Part shown: positions 29,287 to 64,000 of the stretch, one piece after another | Numbering within the stretch: position 1 is the first letter of the stretch | Layout: each line of letters opens with the position of its first letter | From: Candidatus Heimdallarchaeum aukensis | Lineage (GTDB): Archaea; Asgardarchaeota; Heimdallarchaeia; Heimdallarchaeales; Heimdallarchaeaceae | Direction of reading: 5' to 3' | NCBI GenBank assembly: GCA_021513695.1 | Contig: CP084166.1 | Location: forward strand, 1,824,001-1,888,000 | DNA: 64,000 bases | The notes under the pieces: model-generated | Told to the model about the DNA's origin: nothing | Databases searched by the model: none | What the model saw: the letters and a program-made list of their open reading frames with translations, nothing else | Position numbers and translations under genes: made by a program

Positions 29287-29340
29287 TAGTTTCTTGTATT
29301 TTTTTTCATTATATAATATTTATTATAGAAAATAAAATTA

Positions 29341-30359
29341 TGTTTACTCAATAGACTTGGGTTACACTTTTGGGCAATAGAGAAACATAGGGGTGATTCA
29401 TAAATCTTTCTCCTGGGGTGAGGAAGTTAAGAGATTGGTGAGGACGACTAAAATTGTAGTAAGAGCGGTAGTAGGAGAGATCAGCGTTGCAGTATTTTAG
29501 ACCTAATCTTTCCATCTCACGGATGATGGTTGGGTCCCATGTAGTCTTTCTACTTTTCCACATGTTTCGGGGTGAAAAACTCTAGCTCTGATGTGTTTTA
29601 TTTCCTCTGTTTGGCACCAACGGGAGAAGGTACTTGTTCCTCCTCTAACGGAAGAGAAGAGTGCTCCATTGTCCGTGAGGATAGACTCGGGGTAACCGTA
29701 CTCTTTTATTGCTTCCTCTAGCAAACTTATTATCTGCTCTTTTTTTGGCGCAAAAGGGTGGAATTTAGCTCCCAGACAGAATCGTGAGTGGTCGTCTATC
29801 AAGGTTATGAGGTGGAGATGTTGTCCCTGTTCTTCTACCCAGAATGGCCCTTTCACATCTATTTGCCAGAGTTCGTTAGGTTTTTGACGTTCAAAACTCT
29901 TGTATCGAGGTCTCTTCCTCTTTTTTCTATTAACCCATAAAGGAAGACCTAACTCTTTTATTACTTTCGTCACTGTCGTCTGAGAGAGTGCTTTTCCTTC
30001 TCTCTTCAACAAATAAGCTATCTTCTCCACATTCATTCCTTGTTTTATTCTTAACTCCCTTATCCTCTCTTTTAACTCCTCATCTACTTTTTTGTGTATA
30101 GTTTTTGGTCTGGAAGATCTATCTTTCCACCAACCATTCTCCTTCAGGGTTCTCTCTGAACCTCTTCAACCACTTATACACAAACTTCCTACTCACCATA
30201 TACTTGTGAGCTATCTCTTTTATCTTTTCTCCTTCCAAAGCTTTTTTAACCACAATCTTTCTTAGTTTCTCCAGGTTACGTTCGGGTTTGTTCATAATAT
30301 ATCACTTACCCACGTAACCCACTTCTATTTATTTGTTACCAATGTGAGTTGAGTATACA
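29341..30359 (-). mobile_element. IS481-like insertion sequence copy 1 (rve/DDE transposase), decayed. Flanked by a perfect 16-bp direct repeat ATAGAAAATAAAATTA at 29325-29340 and 30360-30375.
   Basis: Termini are TGTTTACTC... and ...GAGTATACA, an imperfect TIR of the form TGTwyACTC. The HTH plus integrase core read WQIDVKG, LTDNGALF and HPETCGKVER. The flanking direct repeats were read directly from the sequence. Confidence 0.7.
29348..30303 (-). pseudogene. Transposase of IS copy 1, disrupted by at least two frameshifts
   Basis: A 4-nt insertion after ...ENPEGEW compared with copy 2, and a frameshift after ...ERLHGT that splits the ORFs at 29503-30036 and 29348-29563. Confidence 0.65.
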
Positions 30360-35918: not shown

Positions 35919-36022
35919 TGGTGAGGGGAGGGCGATTCGAACGCCCGAACCACTAAGGAACGGATGGCCCATCTTCTTTAAGATCTTGAGTCCGTCGCCG
36001 TTGACCTCTTGGCTATCCCCCC
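35919..36022 (-). tRNA. tRNA-Leu (anticodon CAA) with a 19-nt canonical (37/38) intron; CCA encoded
   Basis: Folded by hand: acceptor GGGGGGA/UCCCCUC, D stem GCC/GGC with an 11-nt loop (type II), anticodon stem ACGGA/UCCGU, loop CUCAAG[intron AUCUUAAAGAAGAUGGGCC]A, 14-nt variable arm, T arm GGGCG-UUCGAAU-CGCCC, discriminator A73. Confidence 0.6.
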
Positions 36023-40667: not shown

Positions 40668-40763
40668 TGGAGCCAGGACGGGGATTTGAACCCCGGAGGC
40701 ATAAGCCAGCGGTTATCTCTCTGATGTTTCGAGACCGCCTCCGTACCACTAGGATATCCTGGC
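40668..40763 (-). tRNA. Type-II tRNA, anticodon CGA (Ser-like), with a short 13-nt intron in the anticodon loop; discriminator U73 followed by CCA
   Basis: Hand fold: acceptor GCCAGGA/UCCUGGC, anticodon stem GCGGU/ACCGC enclosing 20 nt, variable arm UGGCUUAUGCCUC (GGC/GCC stem), T arm CGGGG-UUCAAAU-CCCCG. Confidence 0.5.
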
Positions 40764-52432: not shown

Positions 52433-53559
52433 CTTATTTGTTCTAAAATTTCTGGTTTGATAGGATGATCAAAGTATTTTTCCAGATTTTCAATAACCTC
52501 TTTTCTTTTCAAAGTAAATTTATCTTGATATTCACAAACTAAATTGTAAAGTTTTGGTTTACAGTCTTTTCCACATATTAGCTTTCCATTTTTACATTGG
52601 TCTCTTATTTGCTCTAGTTCTTTATCATCCCTAATAAAGAAAGTTTCAAACCAATTAAATACGGTACATTTTTCAGGAACTCCACCCAGTTCTCTCTGTT
52701 CTTTTAATGTATCTCTTCCACCAGTCAATGCACTCATAATTTTCTTTTTTATCGTTTTTTTATCGTCTCTTATGTATACACAAGTTTCTGGAACTGATGA
52801 TGACATTGGACCCCCTGTGAGTCCTTTCAAGTATTTCACATAAATGGAGGCGGGAGCTGTAATTTTCCTTCTCCCAGCGATATCTCTAGTTAGTCTCATA
52901 TATACATCTTGATCTAAACCTATAGGTACAACTACAGGAAGATTGTAGTCAACACTAGGTTGAAGGATATGAGCTGCTTGCACACAAGAATAGAAAACAG
53001 TTCCTGCATTTTCTTCACCAGAAAAACCTAATGCAGCTTTAATTGAATTATAAGTAAGGTTAACTGAAAAATCAAGTGCTAATCGGTATATTCTGGGTGT
53101 TTCACTTGATAAATAACAATGAACATTATCTGGTTTGAAGCCTAACGCAAAAATATCTATTGCATTCTCGATTGCTAATTTATATGTTTCATCATCCAAT
53201 GTTTTTAACTTTCTAAAAACGTATTTTTCATCATCTGATAAAGGCATAAAAAACTTACATCCGAACTTTTTCTGTAGTTCTAATATCAATTCAAAAACAA
53301 TCAAATGACCAATGTGCAGATCATTTGAAGGTCCTCGACCACTTATTATTGCCCAATCAAGACCATTTTTTGCTCGTTCAAGAATTTTATTAAAGTCTCG
53401 ATGTGCAATAACAATTTTCCTTCTGAAAAAGAAAATATCTTGTTCTATCTCCGATTGAAGTTTGTCTATATCTTCAATCCCAAATTCTCGCATAATGTTT
53501 TCGTAATCAGTTCTTTTTTTAATATCATAGTTACTATTCTGTTTCACATCTATCACCAA
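52423..53559 (-). CDS. trpS: Tryptophanyl-tRNA synthetase (archaeal/eukaryotic type)
   Basis: SGRGPSNDLHIGHLIVFELIL...PLSDDEKYVF parallels eukaryotic TrpRS TGRGPSSEAMHVGHLIPF...DDEKYLW. KMSKS-like GPMSSS. 378 aa. Confidence 0.7.
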   Translation of the reverse strand: MVIDVKQNSNYDIKKRTDYENIMREFGIEDIDKLQSEIEQDIFFFRRKIVIAHRDFNKILERAKNGLDWAIISGRGPSNDLHIGHLIVFELILELQKKFGCKFFMPLSDDEKYVFRKLKTLDDETYKLAIENAIDIFALGFKPDNVHCYLSSETPRIYRLALDFSVNLTYNSIKAALGFSGEENAGTVFYSCVQAAHILQPSVDYNLPVVVPIGLDQDVYMRLTRDIAGRRKITAPASIYVKYLKGLTGGPMSSSVPETCVYIRDDKKTIKKKIMSALTGGRDTLKEQRELGGVPEKCTVFNWFETFFIRDDKELEQIRDQCKNGKLICGKDCKPKLYNLVCEYQDKFTLKRKEVIENLEKYFDHPIKPEILEQIRCT

Positions 53560-53722
53560 AAAACGTCACTAAAAAACTTTGTTTTTCCATATAACGAGAT
53601 GGATCACTATTCACTGCAAAAGTAAGAAAAACTATCTTTAAAGTAATTGCCAACCCAAGTGACCACTCTCATCGTTAGGTGGTTATAATTATTTAAAAAG
53701 TTTATCCAAAATTTTCCAATTT

Positions 53723-54742
53723 TGTATACTCTACCTACGTTGGTAACAAATAAATAGAAAGTGGGTTACGAGGGTAAATGATGAATTATGAACAAACCCG
53801 AACGTAACCTAGAGAGACTAAGAAAGATTGTGGTTAAAAAAGCTTTGGAAGGAGAAAAGAGAAGATAAAAAAGGTAGCTCACGACTATATGGTGAGTAGG
53901 AAGTTTGTGTATAAATGGTTAAAGAGGTTCAGAGAGAACCCTGAAGGAGAATGGTGGAAGGATAGATCTTCCAGACCAAAAACTATACACAGGAAAGTAG
54001 ATGAGGAGTTAAAAGAGAGGATAAGGGAGTTAAGAATAAAACAAGGAATGAATGTGGAGAAGATAGCTTATCTGTTGAAGAAAGAAGGAAGAGGATTATC
54101 GCGAAATACAGTAATTAAAGTAATAGGAGAGCTTGGTCTTCCTCTGTGGAGTAATAGGAAAAAGAGGAAGAGACCTCGATACAAGAGATTTGAGCGAGAA
54201 AAACCTAACGAACTCTGGCAGATAGATGTGAAAGGACCATTCTGGGTAGAAGAACAAGGATAGACAACATCTCCACCTCATAACTCTCATAGATGATCAC
54301 TCACGATTCTGTCTAGGAGCTAAACTTCACCCTTTTGCACCGAAAAAAGAGCAGATAATAAGTTTGCTAGAAGAAGCAATAGAAAAATATGGTCGCCCCG
54401 AGTCTATACTCACGGACAATGGAGCCCTCTTCTCTTCTGTTAGAGGAGGAACAAGTACCTTCTCCCGTTGGTGTCAAACAGAGGGAATAAAACACATCAG
54501 AGCTAGAGTTTTTCACCCTGAAACATGCGGAAAAGTAGAAAGACTACATGGAACCATCATCCGTGAGATGGAAAGATTAGGTCTAAAATACTGCAACTCC
54601 GACCTCTCTTACTATCGCTCGTACTACAATTTTAGTCGTCCTCACCAGTCTCTTAACCTCCTTACTCCTGGAGAAAGATTTATGAATCACCCTTACGTTT
54701 CTCTAGTGCCCAAAAGTGTAACCCATGTCTATTGAGTGAACA
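53723..54742 (+). mobile_element. IS481-like insertion sequence copy 2, decayed. Flanked by a perfect 16-bp direct repeat CAAAATTTTCCAATTT at 53707-53722 and 54743-54758.
   Basis: Termini are TGTATACTC... and ...GAGTGAACA. About 85-90% identical to copy 1 by eye, in inverted orientation. The direct repeats were read directly from the sequence. Confidence 0.7.
53785..54735 (+). pseudogene. Transposase of IS copy 2, disrupted by an indel in the HTH region and a 4-nt insertion that creates an in-frame TAG after ...WVEEQG
   Basis: The ORF fragments at 53889-54263 and 54364-54735 together span the HTH plus rve core (WQIDVKG, LTDNGALF, HPETCGKVER). Confidence 0.65.
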
Positions 54743-54824
54743 CAAAATTTTCCAATTTAATAAAAGAAGTATTTTAGTACAGAATTAAAAAGAATATTTT
54801 TGAATATAAAAAAAATGTAAACAT

Positions 54825-56237
54825 ATGAATAATTGGATTGAGTTTTATCTTTCATCACTCAGAGAACTTAAGCCTAGAAATCCCAATCAAAGCCATATTT
54901 TAATCGGTTTTAATGTTAATTTAGATAAAATAATAAAAATCACTCCAATTAATTTTTCCAACTATTTTTCTAAATTTCAAGATTTTGAAAATAACAATAG
55001 TTTTTCCCTAAAAGAAAAAATAATAGAAACAGAGGAGAATTTCTTTAAATTTCTTATCGATGCCATTAAAAGAGGAAAGGCTGAAGAATACCTCATAAAC
55101 GAAAAAATTCAGGAATGGATTGAATCAAATTTCTCTCTTGAGAAAACATGTATTGGAGGACAAGCTGCAATCATCGCAAATATATTAAGTGACTTTGGTT
55201 ACACCAACATAATTTTAAGTTTACCAGTAAAAGATAAACGCTTTAAACATCTACTTAATGAAGAAATAAGAATTCCAATCAAAAAGAATAATGAAGTAGA
55301 ATTATTACCAATAAAAAAAATACCCTTCAAAAGAAAATACAACATAGAGCACTATATCTTTGAATTCAATTCAGGGAAGTACTCTATAGGAAATAAGCGT
55401 ATAGTTTGCACTAGAAACAACAGATTTATAGCTTCTGCAGACACGATAAATTCAAAAATGATAATAGATGATGCTTTTGTAGAATGGAGCAGAAAAAATG
55501 CAAGATCAATTACAGTTGCAATATTATCTGGTTTTCATTTACTACGAAGTGAGATCTTAAAAGAAAAAGAGAAAAATAACTTAAACAGTACAATTGAACT
55601 AATAGAACAATTGAAGAAAAACAATAAACAGATAAAAATTCACATAGAGCTAGCTTCATTTAATAATATAGAAAGTTTAAGTTTTGTAATCGAAAAACTA
55701 TTTCCAACTATTGACTCCATTGGGTTAAATGAACAAGAACTAATCATGGTTGCAAGAATTTTTGACACTGAACTTTCTTCAAAAATGCGAAACGGAACAA
55801 TAATTGACTATTGTAATGGTTTATTTGAGATATTTAGAAGATTTTCAAACTTAAGGATTCATTTTCATTTCTTAGGTTACTATCTCATCCTCTCAAAACC
55901 AATTTCAGAAGAAAAAATTATGACTAGGCGTTCTTCTCTAATTAAAGCAGCAATTAAAGCCTATCAAAAAGTATCACTATCTTCAAATATATTATATATC
56001 AAAGAAAATATAAAAAATCTTATCTCACGTAAAGGAATAGATGAAATAAGAACATTAGAAGAGTACTTGGTTAAGAAGTATAAGGTTGAAGGATCACTTT
56101 CTTTTGATGGGTATTTAAGATCCGAAAAATTTACTATTGTTGCTATACCAACTTTAATAGAAAAAAAACCTACACATCTTGTAGGATTGGGGGACACTAT
56201 TTCTTCTGTGTCATTTATTGAAGATTATATTGACTAA
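54825..56237 (+). CDS. ADP-dependent sugar kinase (ADP-GK/ADP-PFK family)
   Basis: GGQAAIIAN (as in GGNAAxMAN) and the C-terminal GLGDTISS motif (GxGD nucleotide-binding). 470 aa. Confidence 0.65.
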   Translation: MNNWIEFYLSSLRELKPRNPNQSHILIGFNVNLDKIIKITPINFSNYFSKFQDFENNNSFSLKEKIIETEENFFKFLIDAIKRGKAEEYLINEKIQEWIESNFSLEKTCIGGQAAIIANILSDFGYTNIILSLPVKDKRFKHLLNEEIRIPIKKNNEVELLPIKKIPFKRKYNIEHYIFEFNSGKYSIGNKRIVCTRNNRFIASADTINSKMIIDDAFVEWSRKNARSITVAILSGFHLLRSEILKEKEKNNLNSTIELIEQLKKNNKQIKIHIELASFNNIESLSFVIEKLFPTIDSIGLNEQELIMVARIFDTELSSKMRNGTIIDYCNGLFEIFRRFSNLRIHFHFLGYYLILSKPISEEKIMTRRSSLIKAAIKAYQKVSLSSNILYIKENIKNLISRKGIDEIRTLEEYLVKKYKVEGSLSFDGYLRSEKFTIVAIPTLIEKKPTHLVGLGDTISSVSFIEDYID

Positions 56238-56318
56238 CTTAGTAATAACATTTAAGCTTGAATAAAAATTTAGAAAAATTTTTGCTCTTATATATGCTAT
56301 GAAGGTAGTATTAATGAT

Positions 56319-57689
56319 ATGAGTTCCAGAATAAGTACTCATGATAATGTAATTGAATTATATCATAAAAAAAATTTGCAATTACGAGTTGAAATTTTTA
56401 AAATTAAAAATTTTAATGCAGAAAACAAGCACTTGATAAACGAGTTGACATCTAGAAAACAAACTTACAGTCTTTATATCTCAAAACAAGAAATTCTTTT
56501 GTTTATATATTATTTCAAAGATGAATTGGTAAGAATTGATTCTAAAGACGTATCTAATAACAGTTTTTTAGTTAGCTATGTAGATATAATAAATGAAACC
56601 AATAGTTATTTTCCAGTACAAAAAATTAGAAAAATAAAAGAAAAGAACGATATAATACAAATTACTTACGATAATAAAGAAAAAGAATTCTATAGAATAT
56701 ATGTATGCCAATTAAGAAAAGGAGAACAACTTCTAGAAAAAGATATTGCTAAGTATTTCAGTGATATAGCAAAGTTAGGTTTTTTTGACATTGTAATATC
56801 ACAAAAATTTGATAACAAGGAAGGAAAGAATAGTGAAAATTGGGGAATATTTCTAATTACAAAAAATAAAAATGAAAAAGAACTTGAAATAAAGCATAAG
56901 CATTTTATGAATTTAATTAATCGCAAAATAAAATTATTTAATATAAATTTTGTAAAGGCAACAAAAAAAGATATTGAGTGGAATAGAACTAAATTCCAGT
57001 TTTTATTACCATGGATAAGACACTCTGGGAATCTGGCATTTACATTAGATTTTAATTTATTTTTTAATAACTTCAACACTACAGCTAGACTAAACTTAAA
57101 AGAAAAACATGAAAACTTAAAAGGAAAAAAAGAGAAAATTAATTCAACTTATAATCCTGACAAAAAGCCATTACCTTCAGTAAAAGAAATAAACTACAAC
57201 ATAGGTAGATCAAATAAAGATTTTAAACTAAAAAAAGATGAAATTATGTCTCAAATTGAAGAACCGATGATTATTCAAACAATTCCAAAGACAACTGAAG
57301 TCTCAAAAAAATCAAATAAGGTTCAAATAAGAAAAACAGTTTCTGGAATTTTCAAAACAATTGGTTTCAAAGAAAGTTTAATTTTTAATAATAAGTTTGA
57401 TATCGTACTAAGACGAGGGACATCTTACATTTTTGTTATTATCTCTACAGATACATTTCTATCTCACAACGCTTATGAACTTATTGAAGAATTATCAAGC
57501 ATTGCTGGTTTAAGGAACAACTTTTTAGCGTTGGTTATTGCACCAGTTTTTGAACGACAAGCGGAGAAAATATTACGAGATTATAATATTATAATGGTCA
57601 ATAAGTTAGAAAGTATGGATGAAGAAACGTTAAAGAAAGTATTACACGAAAGATCTAGTGAATTATACTCATTTCTACCTGTTGCATAA
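56319..57689 (+). CDS. Lys-rich hypothetical protein with internally repeated FDIV..hhhI motif
   Basis: 456-aa ORF. GFFDIVISQ...WGIFLITKN and KFDIVLRRGTSYIFVIIS suggest two related alpha/beta modules. No family recognised. Confidence 0.35.
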   Translation: MSSRISTHDNVIELYHKKNLQLRVEIFKIKNFNAENKHLINELTSRKQTYSLYISKQEILLFIYYFKDELVRIDSKDVSNNSFLVSYVDIINETNSYFPVQKIRKIKEKNDIIQITYDNKEKEFYRIYVCQLRKGEQLLEKDIAKYFSDIAKLGFFDIVISQKFDNKEGKNSENWGIFLITKNKNEKELEIKHKHFMNLINRKIKLFNINFVKATKKDIEWNRTKFQFLLPWIRHSGNLAFTLDFNLFFNNFNTTARLNLKEKHENLKGKKEKINSTYNPDKKPLPSVKEINYNIGRSNKDFKLKKDEIMSQIEEPMIIQTIPKTTEVSKKSNKVQIRKTVSGIFKTIGFKESLIFNNKFDIVLRRGTSYIFVIISTDTFLSHNAYELIEELSSIAGLRNNFLALVIAPVFERQAEKILRDYNIIMVNKLESMDEETLKKVLHERSSELYSFLPVA

Positions 57690-57752
57690 GAGTATTAAAA
57701 TCACATCTATTGAAAACTAGATTTCAAATATTTTTCTTAAAAAAACTTATTT

Positions 57753-57828
57753 TGGCGGGCCAGGCAGGATTTGAACCTACGATAGCCTGCTCCGGAGGCA
57801 GGTGCCTTATCCACTAGACTACTGGCCC
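57753..57828 (-). tRNA. tRNA-Arg (anticodon CCG), intronless, CCA encoded
   Basis: Hand fold: acceptor GGGCCAG/CUGGCCC, D arm GUCU-AGUGGAUA-AGGC, anticodon stem CCUGC/GCAGG with loop CUCCGGA, T arm GUAGG-UUCAAAU-CCUGC, G73. 76 nt. Confidence 0.8.
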
Positions 57829-57934
57829 AAGATTAATTAAAGTAGAATTGAAAAAGTTGTCATTTTCGGACAAATAACTCGTTTTTATAAAGTAAATTCG
57901 GTTCTTGGAAAAGAATAAAGGTTAAAATTTCTAA

Positions 57935-58279
57935 CTAATCATATTCTCTCCAAGTGTGACCACATTCCACGCACCGGAAAAACCGAGTTGGAGATTCATC
58001 TGCACTTCTAGTCTGTCGTTGCCAATAGGTAACCCTCTGCTTCTTTTCACATTTTGGACAGTATAATTCTCTTGTAGGCAAGGTTTCATCAATCGCAGAC
58101 TCGTCAATAACCTCCGACTTTAATAACTCTCTTTCTATATCATGGTTAATTTCCTCTGTAAATGAATTATCTTGGGCATCACTAATTTCCTTTGTATAAC
58201 CGCATTTTGTACAAATTAATTTACTACTTTCTGGTATCAATAATTTTCCACACTTAGGACAAAATTCCAATAGTATCAC
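57935..58279 (-). CDS. tfs: Transcription factor S (TFS) / RNAP subunit M-like
   Basis: N-terminal zinc ribbon CPKCGKLL...CTKCGY and C-terminal TFIIS-type ribbon CPKCEKKQRVTYWQRQTRSADESPTRFFRCVECGHTWR. Confidence 0.8.
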   Translation of the reverse strand: MILLEFCPKCGKLLIPESSKLICTKCGYTKEISDAQDNSFTEEINHDIERELLKSEVIDESAIDETLPTRELYCPKCEKKQRVTYWQRQTRSADESPTRFFRCVECGHTWREYD

Positions 58280-58359
58280 CTATACGCCTTGAATGATACT
58301 AAAATTATTGTTTCAAAAATATTTCTTTTAAAGTAAAAAATTGGAAAAAAATTATGATT

Positions 58360-59100
58360 TCAGACAAACATTCCTTTATCTGAATCATCCTTTTCAGCCT
58401 GAGGTTTGTTAGCTTTCAGCAGACTCTGAATTTCTTTTTCAATTTTTTCAGCTTGCTCAATTAGTGCAGAAATATCTACAGTAATACCAACCATCTTTTC
58501 TATCTCTTTAATTGCAATACTTGCTGCAATTGGGTCGGGCCTTGATCTTTCTGCGTAAGGTAATAAAGCCATAGCTGGAAAATCATGTAATTCAGAAAAG
58601 AGCATTACATAGGCTAAAGGCCCAGTTACATAGAGACCCTCATCTAAAGTTGGAATTGAAATAGACTTCTCAAGTTTAATAAAAGCTTGAGTATATATCG
58701 CTTTTAGCTGGTTATCATCTTTAAGTCTGTTGTCTAAGCCACCAACCAATATTGCTTGTTTAAAACCAGTATCAATACACCATTTTACTAATGTTTTTGT
58801 AAATTTTAAGTGCTCACTTTTTATTGGTTCAAAAATAGGTAATACAATGACTAGATTATCCTTTCGGTATATTTCAAAGGGAAAAGTAATGCGTTCATTT
58901 TTTATAGTTATAAATTGAGGTATATTTTCTGTAATTATAAAACCTATTCTCTTAGCTTCTATCTTTTCAACAATGTGACTAACAGATATATAACCACACT
59001 CACCAATCCCATGCCAACCATTCAATAATGTACAACCTTTAAAATCCTCTTTTTCTTTAAATACAAAACTAATTTCTCCGTAGTTTTTTGTAAAAACCAT
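58360..59100 (-). CDS. PAC2-family protein (archaeal proteasome-assembly-chaperone-like, PbaA/B)
   Basis: 246-aa ORF. The call rests on overall resemblance to COG1938/PAC2 proteins and is tentative. Confidence 0.45.
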   Translation of the reverse strand: MVFTKNYGEISFVFKEKEDFKGCTLLNGWHGIGECGYISVSHIVEKIEAKRIGFIITENIPQFITIKNERITFPFEIYRKDNLVIVLPIFEPIKSEHLKFTKTLVKWCIDTGFKQAILVGGLDNRLKDDNQLKAIYTQAFIKLEKSISIPTLDEGLYVTGPLAYVMLFSELHDFPAMALLPYAERSRPDPIAASIAIKEIEKMVGITVDISALIEQAEKIEKEIQSLLKANKPQAEKDDSDKGMFV

Positions 59101-59145
59101 ATTTTTCCACCAATAAGATTAAATAGAAAAGAAAAATGAAGAAGG

Positions 59146-59880
59146 TTATTTCCTTCCTTTCTTTCGACCACTTCGTTTAGCAGCTATCAAACCAACTTTC
59201 TTTCCTGGTTGAGAATGTCTAGATACTGTTGTAGATCTTGGTGGACCTTGATGTGAGCCACCACCATGTGGATGACTGACAGCATTCATGGCAACACCTC
59301 GAACACGTGGGTAATAATGGCCTTTTGCTTTCATTGCATGATATTTATTTCCTGCTTTAACAAAAGGTTTCTCTGTTCGACCTCCACCAGCAACAATACC
59401 AATAGTTGCTCTACATTTTTGTGGAATCTCTTTTATTTCACCGCTAGGTAACTGAACTTTGACTTTGCCTTTATCTCTGCCAAGGATTAAAGCATAGCCA
59501 CCACTTGAACGAATAATTCGACCACCATCACCTGGAGTAAGTTCGATATTAAATACAGGAGTTCCATCGGGTATAAATTGTAAAGGAAGGGTATTGTTAA
59601 TTTGTATAGAAGCTGCTGCCCCATACTCTATCTGTTGACCTACTCTAACACCTTCAGAAACTAAACTAACCTTTTTGAGTTCATCCTCAAAAAGAATTCT
59701 TGCGATAGGAGCTCCTCTTCCAGGATCATGGATAATATCTTTAACTACACCAGTAATTTTCCCGGAGTATTCTATTTTAGAGAGTTTTCTATATTTTACA
59801 CTCCCTTTTCTTTTATGAGAAGCGGCACGAAATTGTGATGTTCCTCTTCCGCGTCTTTGGACTAAAATTTTCTTACCCAT
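59146..59880 (-). CDS. rpl2: Ribosomal protein uL2
   Basis: ...GGRTEKPFVKAGNKYHAMKAKGHYYPRVRGVAMNAVSHPHGGGSHQ... Confidence 0.9.
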   Translation of the reverse strand: MGKKILVQRRGRGTSQFRAASHKRKGSVKYRKLSKIEYSGKITGVVKDIIHDPGRGAPIARILFEDELKKVSLVSEGVRVGQQIEYGAAASIQINNTLPLQFIPDGTPVFNIELTPGDGGRIIRSSGGYALILGRDKGKVKVQLPSGEIKEIPQKCRATIGIVAGGGRTEKPFVKAGNKYHAMKAKGHYYPRVRGVAMNAVSHPHGGGSHQGPPRSTTVSRHSQPGKKVGLIAAKRSGRKKGRK

Positions 59881-59892
59881 TTTTTCACCACC

Positions 59893-60162
59893 TTAGAATA
59901 GACCCATCTTCGAAGCAATATCAGCAGCATCATCAAATTCACTCAATTTTACATAGGCTTTTTTCGTACCTCGTGGGGTAATTAAAGTATTAACTTTTTC
60001 TACTTTAACATTATACAATTTTTCTATTGCTTCCTTGATTTGATGCTTTGTTGCTCTACGATCAACTAGGACGACGAGTTTATTTTCTCTTTCAATTAAC
60101 TCGAAATCTTTCTCGCTAATTAAAGGTTTTTTAATTATATTGTACAAATCCATTATCCTCAC
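59893..60162 (-). CDS. rpl23: Ribosomal protein uL23
   Basis: 89 aa; [22 protein letters not shown] pattern and its position between uL4 and uL2. Confidence 0.8.
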
Positions 60163-60944
60163 CTGTATTTTTCATTCAAATATGCAACAGCTTTTTCAGT
60201 CCATATTGTTAGTCGACCTGGATCAGCTCCTGGAGCAAGTAACTCTGTTCGTAATTTATCAACTGGTTGCACATCAACTCCTAAAACATTTCTAGCAGCT
60301 TTTAGTATGGGACTATCGTCATTACCTACAACAATTAATGGGCCAACAGGCGTTTTATATCTTCGTCCACGCATTTTTCCTTTTCCAGGGCGGATACGAC
60401 GACCATTTTTAACTCGTTCTAGATCTGCCCCAACGCCTAAATTTTTCAACAATTTAATTGCATCCTTTGTTTTTGATATGTCTTCTGCTTTTGACTCTAC
60501 GATTATTGGAAACTCAACAGAATCATTGAAGCGATGTCCTCTTTCTCGTACTGCATCTTTTAATGCTGTAAAAGCAATCGACGATTTCAAAGCAAGAAGA
60601 TGCTCTTTTTTGTTGATTTTCTCAATAATGTTTTTAGCACTTTTTGGAGGATGCGCTTTGTGTCCACCTCTTGCTTGTGGTACAAAAGCTCCACGTTGGG
60701 CACTATGGGTTCTCGTTCCTTTTGTTCGAGGTACCCTTGCTGCTCCTCTTCCAGGACCCCAGTTTTCTACAGAAACTAGTCTACCAGCTAAGGGACTAAC
60801 TCCTTTTGGTTGCCTGTTCCAACTTTGTTCTGCAAGGACAGCACGTTTAATTACATCTTTCCTTAATGGAGTTTTAAAAACAACAGGTAGTTCCATTTCG
60901 ACATTTGTCTTTGTACCATTTACTGACATAATAATAGCTTTCAT
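60159..60944 (-). CDS. rpl4: Ribosomal protein uL4
   Basis: 261 aa; position and sequence (..[32 protein letters not shown]..). Confidence 0.85.
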
Positions 60945-60949
60945 TCATT

Positions 60950-61951
60950 TCACCCTTGTTGACTTTTCCTTGATATATAAGTTATCTGTGGCTCTTTTTC
61001 TTGCTGCGGAGTTTTTCTCATGGGTTTTCTCAAAAATACTGTACGCTTTTTGCTTCCAGGAATTGAACCTTTAACTAAAACGTAGTTATTTTTTACCAGC
61101 CCATAATTTACAAATCCGCCATCAGGAATAATTTCTTTACCATCAGAACCTATTTGCATAATTCTTTTGTTGTATTCTGTACGAGTATGAAAACCCATTT
61201 GACCATGTCGGGGAACAGTCCACATTGTTCGTGCTGGGTGCCAGGGGCCTATTGAACCAACACCACGTTTTGTTCCTTTAGATTTGTGTTGTAGTATTTT
61301 GATTCCATGTCTTTTAACAGGTCCTTGGAAACCTTTTCCTTTTGTAACAGCAATTACATCGGCAAACTCTCCAGCTTTGAACACATCACGTATCATTACT
61401 TCCTTGCCTAATAGAGATAATCCATATTCGAATCCTTCAGAGGGACTATTACAACCGATTTTTATTTCGGCAATAGAGGGGGTTTTTGTACCTATCCCAG
61501 TCAAGTATGGTTGTGTATGTACAATGGCTCTGATCTCCACCATTTCGGGGAGCTTTTCTTCAAAGTTCTTTTTTGCTTTCTCAAAATCGTATTTTTTAGG
61601 GGTTTTAACACGCCGACGTAATTCTTCCTTATATTCAGAAGAGAAGAGATCAGCTGAAATACTAAGACCATATGGAGTCTTAGCGTAGCCGCGGAGACCA
61701 TAAACAACAATTGGTGGGGTCTCAATAACAGTGCAAGCTACTGTTACCTCGCGGTTCGCCAGATGACTTTGCCGGCGATCCTCTATATACGATAGTTGGC
61801 TCATTCCCGCTTTGATACCTAAGAAACCAAGCAACTTTGGCTGCCCGTTATATTCTGGCCAAGCTCTTGGTTTAGGAGTAAGCCTTGCGGCCCTATTCCT
61901 TCTGTATCCAAGCGATGAGCGACGAGGTGCATGGCTTGTTCTACTTCCCAT
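60950..61951 (-). CDS. rpl3: Ribosomal protein uL3
   Basis: 333 aa; ...FKAGEFADVIAVTKGKGFQGPVKRHGIKILQHKSKGTKRGVGSIGPWHPARTMWTVPRHGQMGFHTRTEYN... Its 5' two-thirds are duplicated at 63473-64000. Confidence 0.9.
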   Translation of the reverse strand: MGSRTSHAPRRSSLGYRRNRAARLTPKPRAWPEYNGQPKLLGFLGIKAGMSQLSYIEDRRQSHLANREVTVACTVIETPPIVVYGLRGYAKTPYGLSISADLFSSEYKEELRRRVKTPKKYDFEKAKKNFEEKLPEMVEIRAIVHTQPYLTGIGTKTPSIAEIKIGCNSPSEGFEYGLSLLGKEVMIRDVFKAGEFADVIAVTKGKGFQGPVKRHGIKILQHKSKGTKRGVGSIGPWHPARTMWTVPRHGQMGFHTRTEYNKRIMQIGSDGKEIIPDGGFVNYGLVKNNYVLVKGSIPGSKKRTVFLRKPMRKTPQQEKEPQITYISRKSQQG

Positions 61952-62100
61952 GTTATCTCACATCTTTATTTTTATTTTTTATACCATAAAACCAGTTTGT
62001 TATTTTTAATGTACAAACTGGTATCTTATGCTTGTATTCCGAAAATCATTTTGCTCATATAAAGATGTTGTTTTGCGTTTTTTATAATACAGCTAGAAAA

Positions 62101-62625
62101 CTAGACTTTACTAAAATAACGTTTTAAAGGACTTCCACAATCTGGACAATGAACCAGTTTTTTTGTGAATTTAGCTCCACACACAGTACATTTCCAGAAA
62201 TACTTTTTCTTTTTTGTAATTTTAAAGAAAGAAGATTCTACTCTAATATTAAATATCTTACATAAATTTTGAATAGCATTATCATCTGAAATGATAGTGA
62301 ACTCTGGGTTTTCTATTGCAAGAGCTATAATAGTAAGATCATAACTCGATAATCGTCCATATTCACCAGCTTGCTTAGCTAGATTAACTGCTTTAGAAAA
62401 GGAAGAAGATGAAGGGATGAGAAAAAGAATGTTTTGTTTATTCTCAAGAAGACTTAAAACTAAATTGCTTTCAAATGATTTTAATTCCTCAGTGATATTA
62501 GCGGGAATTATAACAACACAATCGTCTGTTAAGAACCAATCTTTTGCCAAGATTTGGATTACAACCGTAGAGTCTAGTATTAATTTTTTTGGAAAATTTT
62601 TAGGTAAATGTCGCTCTTGAACCAA
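62101..62625 (-). CDS. nob1: Nob1-like PIN endonuclease with C-terminal zinc ribbon
   Basis: PIN acidic residues (LDSTVVIQ, IISDDNAIQN) plus CTVCGAKFTKKLVHCPDCGSP. Confidence 0.65.
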   Translation of the reverse strand: MVQERHLPKNFPKKLILDSTVVIQILAKDWFLTDDCVVIIPANITEELKSFESNLVLSLLENKQNILFLIPSSSSFSKAVNLAKQAGEYGRLSSYDLTIIALAIENPEFTIISDDNAIQNLCKIFNIRVESSFFKITKKKKYFWKCTVCGAKFTKKLVHCPDCGSPLKRYFSKV

Positions 62626-62630
62626 TTAAT

Positions 62631-63539
62631 TCACCGAATACGTTCCAACAACTTATTTCGAACACGTTTTATATAATTATCAGAGAATCTAATAAATCTA
62701 ATTTTTTCTCCAGATTTGTAAATCTTTACATGTTCATTGTATCCTAACGTGTAGTGAGCCTGTCCATCAACAACAACGATGCCTGTTCTGAATTTAGCCT
62801 CGTTAGTAACTGTTACTACCGTATCAGTTGAAAAAACAATAGGAGAAACATTTACAATAAAGGGACAGATTGGAACAAGGCAAAAAGCTTCTACATTAGG
62901 CATAATCAAAGGTCCTCCAGCTGACCTTGCATATGCGCTAGAACCTGCACTTGTAGAAACGATTACACCATCACCTTCAATAACATAAAATAATTTGTCA
63001 TTAATTTCAACCTTTAACCTCATAATGTTTCCATGATTCTTTGGAACAATAGTTATATCATTAACTGCTGAAATAGGGGGATAAGACTCTGATGAGACAG
63101 CTACTGTTGAAAACTCTTCTATTATAAATTCATCATTCAATATTTTATTGATTGCCCAATCTAACTTTTGTGGAATTATCTCAGTAAGAAAACCTACACG
63201 ACCACAATTAACTCCCAAAATAGGAGATTCTTTCCATTGAGTAAAAGTTTTCAGGATTGTCCCATCTCCTCCAAAAACAATGACTAGATCGGGTTGTTGT
63301 CCTTGTATAATGAAATCAGATTTCCGTAAATTTTTAGCTAAAACTTGACTTAGAGCAACCTTATAACCCTTTTCTAATAACATAGAAAGCGCTTCTGATG
63401 CAGAAATCAAAGCACTTTCTTTTTCTGATGAAACTAGAAGTATTAAAGAATCTTTTGTCAGCAATGCCCTTCTGTTGTAGTATTTTGATTCCATGTCTTT
63501 TAACAGGTCCTTGGAAACCTTTTCCTTTTGTAACAGCAA
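62631..63539 (-). CDS. nadK: NAD(+) kinase. The first 20 codons lie in an alternative frame of the duplicated rpl3 fragment (chimeric start).
   Basis: GGDGT motif (VIVFGGDGTILK), NCGRVGFL, and the C-terminal NadK fold. The junction with the rpl3 copy is at 63472/63473. Confidence 0.75.
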   Translation of the reverse strand: MLLQKEKVSKDLLKDMESKYYNRRALLTKDSLILLVSSEKESALISASEALSMLLEKGYKVALSQVLAKNLRKSDFIIQGQQPDLVIVFGGDGTILKTFTQWKESPILGVNCGRVGFLTEIIPQKLDWAINKILNDEFIIEEFSTVAVSSESYPPISAVNDITIVPKNHGNIMRLKVEINDKLFYVIEGDGVIVSTSAGSSAYARSAGGPLIMPNVEAFCLVPICPFIVNVSPIVFSTDTVVTVTNEAKFRTGIVVVDGQAHYTLGYNEHVKIYKSGEKIRFIRFSDNYIKRVRNKLLERIR

Positions 63540-64000
63540 TTACATCGGCAAACTCTCCAGCTTTGAACACATCACGTATCATTACTTCCTTGCCTAATAG
63601 AGATAATCCATATTCGAATCCTTCAGAGGGACTATTACAACCGATTTTTATTTCGGCAATAGAGGGGGTTTTTGTACCTATCCCAGTCAAGTATGGTTGT
63701 GTATGTACAATGGCTCTGATCTCCACCATTTCGGGGAGCTTTTCTTCAAAGTTCTTTTTTGCTTTCTCAAAATCGTATTTTTTAGGGGTTTTAACACGCC
63801 GACGTAATTCTTCCTTATATTCAGAAGAGAAGAGATCAGCTGAAATACTAAGACCATATGGAGTCTTAGCGTAGCCGCGGAGACCATAAACAACAATTGG
63901 TGGGGTCTCAATAACAGTGCAAGCTACTGTTACCTCGCGGTTCGCCAGATGACTTTGCCGGCGATCCTCTATATACGATAGTTGGCTCATTCCCGCTTTG
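63361..64000 (-). pseudogene. Truncated second copy of rpl3 (N-terminal part only), fused out of frame to nadK sequence
   Basis: Identical to uL3 residues ...MSQLSYIEDRRQ...HGIKILQ, then QKGIADKRFF...RKGL* read from nadK DNA in the wrong frame. Confidence 0.7.
63473..64000. repeat. Perfect direct duplicate of 61287-61814, the 5' portion of rpl3; continues past the window end
   Basis: 528 of 528 nt identical by direct reading; the copies are offset by 2186 bp. It forms the truncated rpl3 ORF at 63361-63990, which ends in 37 out-of-frame codons. Confidence 0.85.

Follow-up and report, generated by a model that had tools for sequence, protein, structure and literature searches.

The repeat at the right-hand end of the analysed DNA is likely a genuine and very young tandem duplication, in which a 2186-bp segment lies head to tail in the chromosome of Ca. 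Heimdallarchaeum aukensis PM71, a population from one ethane/sulfate enrichment. In the window, i.e., the whole 64,000-nt stretch that was analysed, positions 63473-64000 were identical base by base to positions 61287-61814 (528/528 nt), and self-comparison revealed a repeat period of 2186 nt and no other long direct repeat. The base to the left of each copy differs (G at 61286, C at 63472), and therefore the repeat begins exactly at 61287/63473. The proximal copy of the duplicated unit (61287..63472, unstranded; 2186 nt) is defined by this period and by an independently assembled contig with 0 mismatches to 61287-63473. Within it are codons 1-222 of rpl3 with the region upstream of that gene, nob1, and nadK, whose CDS is complete and is accompanied by 8 nt of leader; the "nadK body" assigned to the unit by the initial annotation is thus the whole coding sequence. 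The left-hand 337 nt of the intact rpl3 (60950-61286), which are the last of that gene, lie outside the unit. The distal copy is represented in the window by its initial 528 nt (63473..64000, unstranded) and extends beyond the window end.

The remainder of the distal copy was traced by exact-sequence look-up of GenBank proteins, in which UJG39873-39875 are consecutive. The accession order is PIN/Nob1 (174 aa), NAD kinase (250 aa), truncated uL3 (258 aa), PIN (187 aa), and NAD kinase (277 aa), and all five proteins are on the 3,081,793-bp genome record. Because the predicted uL3 fragment, a second PIN protein, and a second NAD kinase were deposited consecutively, the whole unit is present twice. 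The two copies are adjacent, in the same orientation, and without a spacer; one novel junction joins the unit end to the unit start, and both parental junctions accompany it. The left-hand parental junction is in the window at 61286/61287, while the right-hand one is seen in three sequences from relatives and is implied for PM71 by an outgoing branch at 63473 and by the 277-aa second nadK. The tandem duplication, 2186-nt period, and 528-bp identity read from the sequence by the initial annotation are hence borne out by sequence comparison and deposited gene order, as is its claim that the copy continues beyond the window; the second nob1 and intact nadK (277 aa) that it sought downstream are both annotated directly after the truncated uL3. 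The zero divergence that it reported is true of the 528 nt seen in the window, but not of the deposited copies overall, which differ by at least one base outside that identical stretch. This base difference is beyond phasing by 150-nt reads. As the two copies are told apart by one unphasable base, the deposit includes at least one decision that was not set by short reads.

The gene names rpl3, nob1, and nadK given earlier were confirmed by Pfam matches. The intact rpl3 (60950..61951, - strand) encodes a uL3 protein of 333 aa, and is supported by its ORF, a PF00297 match of 274.5 bits, and an exact protein match, named 50S ribosomal protein L3 in Ca. H. aukensis. It is the first gene of an rpl3-rpl4-rpl23-rpl2 cluster, and its product covers PF00297 profile positions 2-369, the C-terminal W-finger part included, as a full-length member of the family does. 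The truncated copy (63361..64000, - strand; stop codon at 63361-63363) is an ORF whose start codon lies ~137 nt past the window end, and consists of codons 1-222 followed by 36 out-of-frame codons that overlap the 5' end of nadK. The truncated rpl3 ORF that had been noted at the junction has a predicted product of 258 aa, exactly equal to UJG39873.1. This protein aligns to PF00297 positions 2-245 of 369 only, which falls short of a full-length uL3, and it is devoid of the GPWHP "W-finger" segment and everything beyond it.

The proximal nob1-like gene (62101..62625, - strand; 174 aa) exactly matches UJG39871.1 and scores 37 bits against PF17146 (cutoff 27). Its product has the Nob1-type arrangement, with a PIN_6 domain ahead of a zinc ribbon at the C terminus (CTVCG...CPDCG, residues 145-168), and by family membership it would act in rRNA processing. 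The distal PIN protein, UJG39874.1, is frameshift-fused and 187 aa long; the base in question is a C deletion at 62613, which may be a true frameshift specific to the distal nob1 or an error of polishing. Between nob1 and rpl3, a hairpin (61991..62022, - strand) is formed by a 10-bp stem, ACCAGTTTGT and ACAAACTGGT, around a 12-nt loop, and is followed by TTTTAT; the nob1-rpl3 intergenic fold has a z of -2.25, and the hairpin, copied along with the unit, is possibly a terminator or a leader element, as predicted from its sequence. The proximal nadK (62631..63464, - strand) is a complete CDS for a NAD kinase of 277 aa with a TTG start at 63464-63462. Both family domains were detected, NAD_kinase (PF01513, 58.5 bits, cutoff 25.5) and NAD_kinase_C (PF20143, 98.2 bits, cutoff 23.7), and the translation carries the GGDG motif (VFGGDGT).

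The novel junction (63472..63473, unstranded) was delimited by comparing three sequences: the junction as it stands in the window, native rpl3, and the native nadK upstream sequence in the two JGI contigs described below. On the - strand, rpl3 sequence ending in ...ATACTACAACA is joined to GAAGGGCATTG..., and one base at the junction (A; T at 63473 on the + strand) is common to both parental sequences. Between the junction and the native nadK TTG start downstream of it are 8-9 nt, and the window contains no Ns. An earlier placing of the junction at 63472/63473, after a shared tgttgtag, was right as to position; the tgttgtag is simply the 8 nt with which the repeat opens.

Close relatives carry the same region in a single copy. 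The arrangement truA(-)/nadK/nob1/rpl3 is single-copy in two JGI contigs (L006 and L007; 98.7-99.3% identity) and in the closed genome of H. endolithica PR6 (L008; about 90% identity), each with a single nadK-nob1-rpl3 set, and the alignments of all three to the window end at base 63473. Consecutive nadK, nob1, and rpl3 accessions were found in 4 further MAGs, and the single-copy order is ancestral in close relatives. An rpl3 scan of genome_contigs matched PR6 alone, at 98%. Exact scans with the 40-nt junction (genome_contigs and metagenome_contigs) and with the repeat's first 35 nt (metagenome_contigs and viral_contigs) gave 0 matches; these scans also missed L006 and L007, which carry the 35-mer, and are thus uninformative.

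Independent data were available as Logan k=31 assemblies, whose contigs are 100% identical to the window. One contig (L001) covers 54713-61316 and ends k-1 = 30 nt inside the repeat, a second (L004) covers 61287-63473, i.e., 2187 nt or the unit plus one microhomology base, with no internal branch, and a third (L005, from another run) ends at 63473. These ends match those predicted by a back-edge from the unit end to the unit start, and the novel junction is therefore very probably present in the reads and in the sequenced DNA; a further contig from a third run (L002) ends at 61315, 1 nt short of the prediction. Logan drops singleton k-mers, applies a Minia3 SPAdes-like simplification, and keeps only contigs >150 bp, which accounts for the absence of the 59-nt junction unitig. 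That the break outlasted graph simplification suggests that the junction edge is not rare. A relative-coverage rule of Minia would remove a rare edge; the documentation says just "SPAdes-like heuristics".

The runs SRR15988954/58/59 were assigned to project PRJNA721962 by 100% identity and run characteristics rather than by metadata. According to the genome paper, one Illumina library and two MDA-Nanopore runs were made from a single DNA extraction of one culture, and the three runs that show the break are consistent with this set. If the assignment is right, Illumina and amplified libraries alike show the break, which speaks against a chimera produced by MDA or ligation. MDA as the source of a chimera was rejected, since the paper reports MDA for the Nanopore preparation only and the same breaks are in the Illumina run. 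An inversion or deletion polymorphism behind the breaks was likewise rejected, because contigs would then end at 61286 and 61257, with the branch where the left flank stops rather than 30 nt into the repeat. A dispersed second copy, with the two borders of the repeat elsewhere, is compatible with the graph alone; it was set aside as unparsimonious, and it goes against the deposited layout, which needs one edge from unit end to unit start.

The foremost alternative to a duplication carried by most chromosomes is that the junction is real but restricted to a minority of molecules, either as an unstable tandem or amplified subpopulation or as a 2186-bp excised circle beside a single-copy chromosome, through which the assembler walked the loop once, so that the deposited two-copy layout would not be that of the dominant genome. 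In populations of prokaryotes, tandem duplications arise often and are unstable. The graph shows that an edge from unit end to unit start exists, not how frequent it is, and does not separate a tandem array from a circle; at 346x coverage, even a modest subpopulation would still give many junction reads. Moreover, the short, MDA-amplified Nanopore reads were probably unable to span two units, and the two-copy layout may equal a single loop traversal by metaSPAdes. Against this, the breaks outlast Minia3 cleaning in the Illumina run and recur in two low-quality runs, in which a rare edge would seldom have at least 2 identical 31-mers, and metaSPAdes likewise retained the edge. The 1-nt difference, called in one copy alone, also fits more easily with an allele near 50%, as for two fixed distinguishable copies. 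A minority junction is for these reasons a distinctly less probable reading, though one with some weight; on the favoured reading, the junction would be at high frequency in the population.

Much less probable is a pure assembly artefact, in which LRScaf strung together metaSPAdes contigs that had a 2.2-kb segment in common, or two strain haplotigs ended up in tandem, with no junction between unit end and unit start in the DNA. The 3.08-Mb PM71 genome was produced with metaSPAdes, LRScaf, and Pilon, i.e., from short-read contigs joined by a scaffolder that "merges" contigs at a negative estimated gap (PMC6902338). The copies are near-identical, the relatives and the JGI assemblies are single-copy, and the deposited copies are one indel apart, as haplotigs might be. 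However, an artefact arising after assembly cannot make an assembly of raw reads at k=31 branch inward at 61287 (with 30 nt of overlap) and outward at 63473, with the 2187-nt unit unbranched in between, and haplotig bubbles would break at variant sites rather than at 61287/63473. This evidence for the junction in the raw reads is base-specific and indirect. Since the independent assemblies branch exactly at both borders, a scaffolding error, as one form of the assembly artefact raised in the initial annotation, is unlikely. The join contains no Ns, is away from the circularisation point, and coincides with neither a contig end nor a closure point. The genome paper describes a genome rotated to end at tRNA-Gly(CCC), the locus tags K9W45_08405-08425 mark a mid-genome position, and none of the published end-joining and gap-closing primers is in the window; a circularisation artefact, also raised at the outset, is on the locus tags and the end-joining primers unlikely.

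A functional chimeric NAD kinase, with a new N-terminus translated from an alternative frame of rpl3 by overprinting, is very improbable. The nadK ORF does have an in-frame upstream extension (63465..63539, - strand) of 25 codons, not the 20 new N-terminal codons first reported; it runs from a TTG at 63539, with an ATG at 63494 and no stop between these and nadK, and is made up of 22 codons + 1 nt of rpl3 sequence in the +1 frame, the remainder being native leader. The proximal nadK is without its native promoter, its native TTG is now within a longer transcript, and just 2-3 nt separate a GAAGGG motif from that TTG, and so upstream initiation is conceivable. Yet the full nadK CDS and the native start codon are intact. 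The native TTG gives 277-aa products in L006, L007, and PR6, and this TTG is conserved across species at 88% ANI together with the leader GAAGGGCA and a further 70 nt upstream. With the junction upstream of this TTG, the CDS is untouched and neither the native start nor N-terminal coding sequence has been replaced, and a chimeric nadK start or chimeric gene is consequently not supported. A search for contigs encoding the 302-aa or 277-aa nadK product gave no match, in an index without the source genome; in the Logan contigs, nadK is cut off at the repeat border.

The Pfam N-domain alignment is the same with or without the extension. The extended form is in no annotation, the 302-aa and 287-aa forms had no match in a collection of 15 billion proteins, and the extension is confined to one assembly and without evolutionary history. 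GenBank calls the proximal nadK from an internal ATG at 63383 (250 aa, UJG39872.1). With this start, and with no database entry for either extended form, the proposed birth of an N-terminus by overprinting was not upheld. The second native nadK copy makes a chimeric form unneeded; the 277-aa CDS of the proximal nadK is identical to it, and the second copy should keep the native promoter.

Equally hard to credit is a fixed and adaptive duplication, in which a second nadK-nob1 pair under a strong ribosomal-protein promoter would increase both the NADP supply and the capacity for 16S maturation as cells grow in the enrichment, nadK would be translated from the upstream ATG or TTG with a newborn N-terminal extension, and the distal nob1, through its one-base frameshift, would be at the onset of subfunctionalisation or pseudogenisation. 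To our knowledge, there is no selection regime that favours higher nadK/nob1 dosage. The event is an ordinary young duplication, in which every gene keeps an intact copy.

As a genuine tandem duplication, the event would have converted the ancestral - strand order, P(nadK)-nadK-nob1-P(rpl3)-rpl3-rpl4..., into P(nadK)-nadK-nob1-P(rpl3)-rpl3(truncated)-nadK-nob1-P(rpl3)-rpl3-rpl4.... The join may have arisen by illegitimate, homology-independent recombination or by template switching at the single shared base, and would have linked rpl3 codon 222 to a site 8-9 nt before the nadK TTG. The predicted result is one intact rpl3 operon that keeps the region upstream of it, while nadK, as a complete CDS, and nob1 are each present twice. 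The uL3 fragment, with the W-finger and the C-terminal third missing, would be non-functional, and the proximal nadK and nob1, without the native nadK promoter, would most likely be transcribed by read-through from the duplicated rpl3 promoter. What is said of TATA boxes and leaders is based on the sequence only.

The main value of these data concerns data quality, in that a flagship "complete" Asgard genome contains an undescribed 2.2-kb duplication. Three public proteins are questionable as a result: UJG39873.1 (UniRef100_A0A9Y1BIT8), a 258-aa chimeric "ribosomal protein L3"; UJG39872.1, a 250-aa N-terminally clipped NAD kinase; and UJG39874.1 (187 aa). As uL3 is a single-copy marker, an extra match to it would probably make redundancy estimates too high. 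Should read depth confirm it, the locus would provide, for an Asgard archaeon, a snapshot of tandem duplication mediated by microhomology, which is expected from bacteria and of modest interest.

False duplications in assemblies arise as haplotig or overlap duplications at scaffold joins. The PM71 repeat resembles them in its near-identical adjacent copies, in its origin from a short-read assembly scaffolded with long reads, and in its absence from other assemblies of the same species; it differs in that raw-read de Bruijn graphs branch at both borders, and in a join that has no Ns and is not contig-end-like. With an origin of genes by overprinting or chimerism, the locus shares a shifted-frame rpl3 sequence in frame upstream of nadK and a uL3 fragment that ends in 36 novel residues. 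In contrast to such cases, the native start of nadK survives 8-9 nt beyond the junction, the extension is conserved nowhere and is a putative ORF only, and the uL3 fragment is without the functionally essential C-terminal third. In Salmonella and E. coli, Roth, Andersson and colleagues have reportedly described spontaneous RecA-independent tandem duplications and amplifications with joins at short or no homology. Unlike those bacterial cases, the present one comes from an uncultured Asgard archaeon in a single enrichment metagenome; like them, it is a head-to-tail repeat of a few kb with near-zero divergence and single-copy sister strains, in which the essential genes are all intact in one copy and a 1-nt microhomology join lies between the inside of one gene and an intergenic leader.

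Direct comparison within the window showed that positions 63473-64000 and 61287-61814 share 528 of 528 bases, with the repeat starts spaced 2186 nt apart, and no other long direct repeat was present in the 64-kb window. The left neighbors of the two copies are unlike (G at 61286, C at 63472), indicating that the repeat starts exactly at 61287/63473. Open reading frames and Pfam matches placed rpl2 (59146-59880), rpl23 (59893-60162), rpl4 (60159-60944), rpl3 encoding uL3 (60950-61951; PF00297, full profile), a Nob1-like gene with PIN_6 and zinc-ribbon domains (nob1, 62101-62625), and the NAD kinase gene nadK (from 62631, with a TTG start at 63464) on the minus strand. These data agree with the gene names in the initial annotation, and with its claim of a base-for-base duplication of the 5' part of rpl3. 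The 149-nt spacer between nob1 and rpl3 (fold z-score of -2.25) contains a perfect 10-bp hairpin on the minus strand (61991-62022; ACCAGTTTGT, a 12-nt loop, ACAAACTGGT, then TTTTAT), which may terminate nadK-nob1 or serve as a leader element for the ribosomal-protein operon.

In two single-copy JGI contigs, L006 and L007 (98.7-99.3% identity to the window), and in the closed genome of Ca. Heimdallarchaeum endolithica PR6 (L008), the gene order is truA (minus strand), nadK (277 aa), nob1, and rpl3, and the alignment of all three to the window reaches only 63473. A three-way comparison on the minus strand, with a slash marking the join, gave ...ATACTACAACA/CAAATC for rpl3, ...TTTTCTTTA/GAAGGGCATTG for the native nadK upstream region, and ...ATACTACAACA/GAAGGGCATTG for the window junction. 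Both parental sequences have only one base (A) in common at the join, which suggests that it would have been made by an illegitimate, essentially homology-free event. Scans of contig collections for the junction and for the start of the repeat gave no match, but L006 and L007, which contain the repeat start, were missed as well, so that these negatives carry no weight.

The protein expected from a full tandem copy (uL3 residues 1-222 plus a tail of 36 residues read out of frame) was built, and an exact-sequence look-up found this predicted 258-aa junction protein as UJG39873.1. The successive accessions are UJG39871 (PIN, 174 aa) and UJG39872 (NAD kinase, 250 aa, called from an internal ATG at 63383) for the window copy, UJG39873 (truncated uL3, 258 aa), UJG39874 (PIN, 187 aa; locus tag K9W45_08420), and UJG39875 (NAD kinase, 277 aa, the same sequence as the window nadK from TTG 63464). 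The complete unit (61287-63472) is thus present twice in the deposited genome, whose layout is a-R-U-R-U-z, where a and z are the flanks, R is the rpl3 5' part, and U is the rest of the unit. The truncated rpl3 ORF and the tandem duplication running past the window, both proposed initially, were therefore recovered, and a second nob1 (UJG39874) and an intact nadK (UJG39875) do follow the junction. The truncated uL3 stops just before GPWHP and, lacking the W-finger and C-terminal third, is almost certainly non-functional.

The deposited genome, PM71 of Ca. Heimdallarchaeum aukensis (3.08 Mbp, 88% ANI to PR6), came from a single ethane/sulfate enrichment sample, FW4588, and was assembled with metaSPAdes on Illumina PE150 reads, two applications of LRScaf using short Nanopore reads from MDA-amplified DNA, and Pilon at 346x; a duplication beside rpl3 is not mentioned in that paper (Wu et al. 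2022, PMC8813620). For an independent look at the raw data, Logan contigs (k=31) were used, for which singleton k-mers are dropped, Minia3 applies SPAdes-like simplification, and only contigs >150 bp are reported. In SRR15988954, L001 (54713-61316) ended exactly k-1 = 30 nt into the repeat, and L004 (61287-63473, 2187 nt) covered, unbroken, the whole unit and one microhomology base; in SRR15988958, L005 covered 61593-63473, and L002 ended at 61315 in SRR15988959, each of the four matching the window at 100%. The L002 end is 1 nt short of 61316, the break position predicted for k=31 at the repeat border, an offset that was treated as noise; the run is error-rich and probably a Nanopore one. Errors of a kind typical for long reads, a T6-to-T5 deletion and a TC-repeat slip, occur in L002 and a further contig, L003. 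The three runs agree with the set described in the PM71 paper, one from Illumina and two from MDA-Nanopore sequencing; the SRR run and IMG identifiers were not found in the literature searched. The break pattern is that of a de Bruijn graph in which a and U both lead into R, and both R and z follow U, and the 59-nt junction unitig falls under the 150-bp reporting limit. These data indicate that the junction between U and R at 63472/63473 very probably exists in the DNA.

The breaks outlast graph cleaning and recur in poor-quality runs; a high-frequency duplication is therefore the likely state, and the same behavior argues against a minority variant or an excised circle, either of which we consider improbable. 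Two units were probably longer than the Nanopore reads could span, so that the deposited copy number likely reflects one traversal of the loop by the assembler and is not a measurement. A partial dispersed copy is disfavored because L004 is unbranched, meaning that all R copies in the data run through U to 63473. An MDA chimera is an unlikely source of the junction, because the Illumina run breaks identically and MDA is stated solely for the Nanopore preparation (PMC8813620). Circularization, one of the artefacts offered in the initial annotation, was rejected, as the locus tags fall in the middle of the genome, none of the published closure primers occurs in the window, and the sequence has no Ns. 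A post-assembly join by LRScaf, which "merges" contigs at a negative estimated gap (PMC6902338), is likewise unlikely, as the reads would bear no sign of it. Deletion and inversion variants were also rejected, since they would shift the left break to 61286, and strain bubbles would have produced breaks at SNPs instead.

The two deposited copies differ beyond the window, where deletion of one C at the equivalent of 62613 (nob1 codon 5) reproduces the distal nob1, UJG39874.1 (187 aa), exactly. The deletion frameshifts the native nob1 start into a 14-codon peptide, and the rest of distal nob1 is joined with a GTG ORF within the 3' end of nadK to give the annotated 187-aa ORF. The C is kept in both L004 and L005. 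The nearest unique anchor is 860 nt away, so 150-nt reads are unable to place the deletion in one copy. A real mutation specific to the distal copy may underlie it, or else a polishing quirk (Pilon artefact). If it is real, ~50% of reads would be expected to carry it, and the duplication would be old enough to have gained a change.

A chimeric nadK start had also been proposed. TTG 63464, 8-9 nt downstream of the break, is in the native context the first canonical start following an in-frame stop; the two species scarcely differ in the start, the leader, and 70 nt of upstream sequence, and all eight cluster members besides GenBank's 250-aa call have 277 aa from this TTG. The Pfam N-domain alignment begins at residue 16 of the 277-aa protein (profile position 10). 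With the break upstream of the conserved TTG, the proximal nadK CDS is intact. The upstream extension of 25 codons (TTG at 63539, ATG at 63494) arises simply because the ORF was extended to the earliest start that follows a stop, and the corresponding 302-aa and 287-aa forms were absent from every database queried; the chimeric start was thus not upheld. The native AT-rich upstream region is lost from proximal nadK, including a putative TATA-like TTTTTATTA ~30-38 nt before the TTG. For UJG39872.1 (proximal nadK, 62631-63464), the GenBank start at ATG 63383 drops 27 residues from the front of the protein, among them the conserved N-terminal strand LILLVSS; this entry is probably N-terminally clipped, the internal ATG apparently having been picked to avoid overlapping the truncated uL3 ORF.

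Elsewhere in the window, a 1071-nt IS-like insert (53716-54786) encodes an HTH and rve-family transposase. This insert is missing at the orthologous PR6 site, where 36 nt separate the flanks, and a second copy (29319-30324), inverted and 88-93% identical, lies 23 kb away. L001 breaks at 54713, inside the insert, and the window and L006 differ at 152 places, 114 of them in 53500-55000, which suggests a different IS copy there in the JGI assembly. Two over-long tRNA-like genes on the minus strand are probably archaeal tRNAs with introns: ARAGORN gave a 96-nt "tRNA-???" whose anticodon has 4 bases (40668-40763), and Rfam gave a 101-nt tRNA (35922-36022; 41.8 bits) missed by ARAGORN. Against the JGI-strain contigs, a divergence island of 32 SNPs (2.8%) at 62110-63267 is restricted to nadK-nob1 and coincides with the non-rpl3 portion of the duplicated unit, whereas the neighboring rpl3-rpl4-rpl23-rpl2 and the greater part of the other 12 kb have 0-3 differences per 500 nt; the island looks like a recombination import into one lineage.

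Altogether, the repeat is a young tandem duplication of an ordinary kind, with no evidence of selection, of a newly made N-terminus on a protein, or of conservation outside this one sample. At least one intact copy each of the essential rpl3 operon, nob1, and nadK is kept, and one nadK/nob1 pair now has a duplicated rpl3 promoter and a dead fragment of uL3 upstream of it. In practice, the duplication has left three misleading proteins in the databases and a second match for the single-copy marker uL3. The closest representative genome by rpl3 protein is PR6 (CP084167.1; 98% amino-acid and ~90% DNA identity). In 24 more distant Heimdall-group loci (L009-L032), tblastn found rpl3 (73-77% identical) with rpl4, and neither nadK nor nob1 near rpl3 in the fetched flanks; the nadK-nob1-rpl3 linkage appears confined to the genus Heimdallarchaeum.
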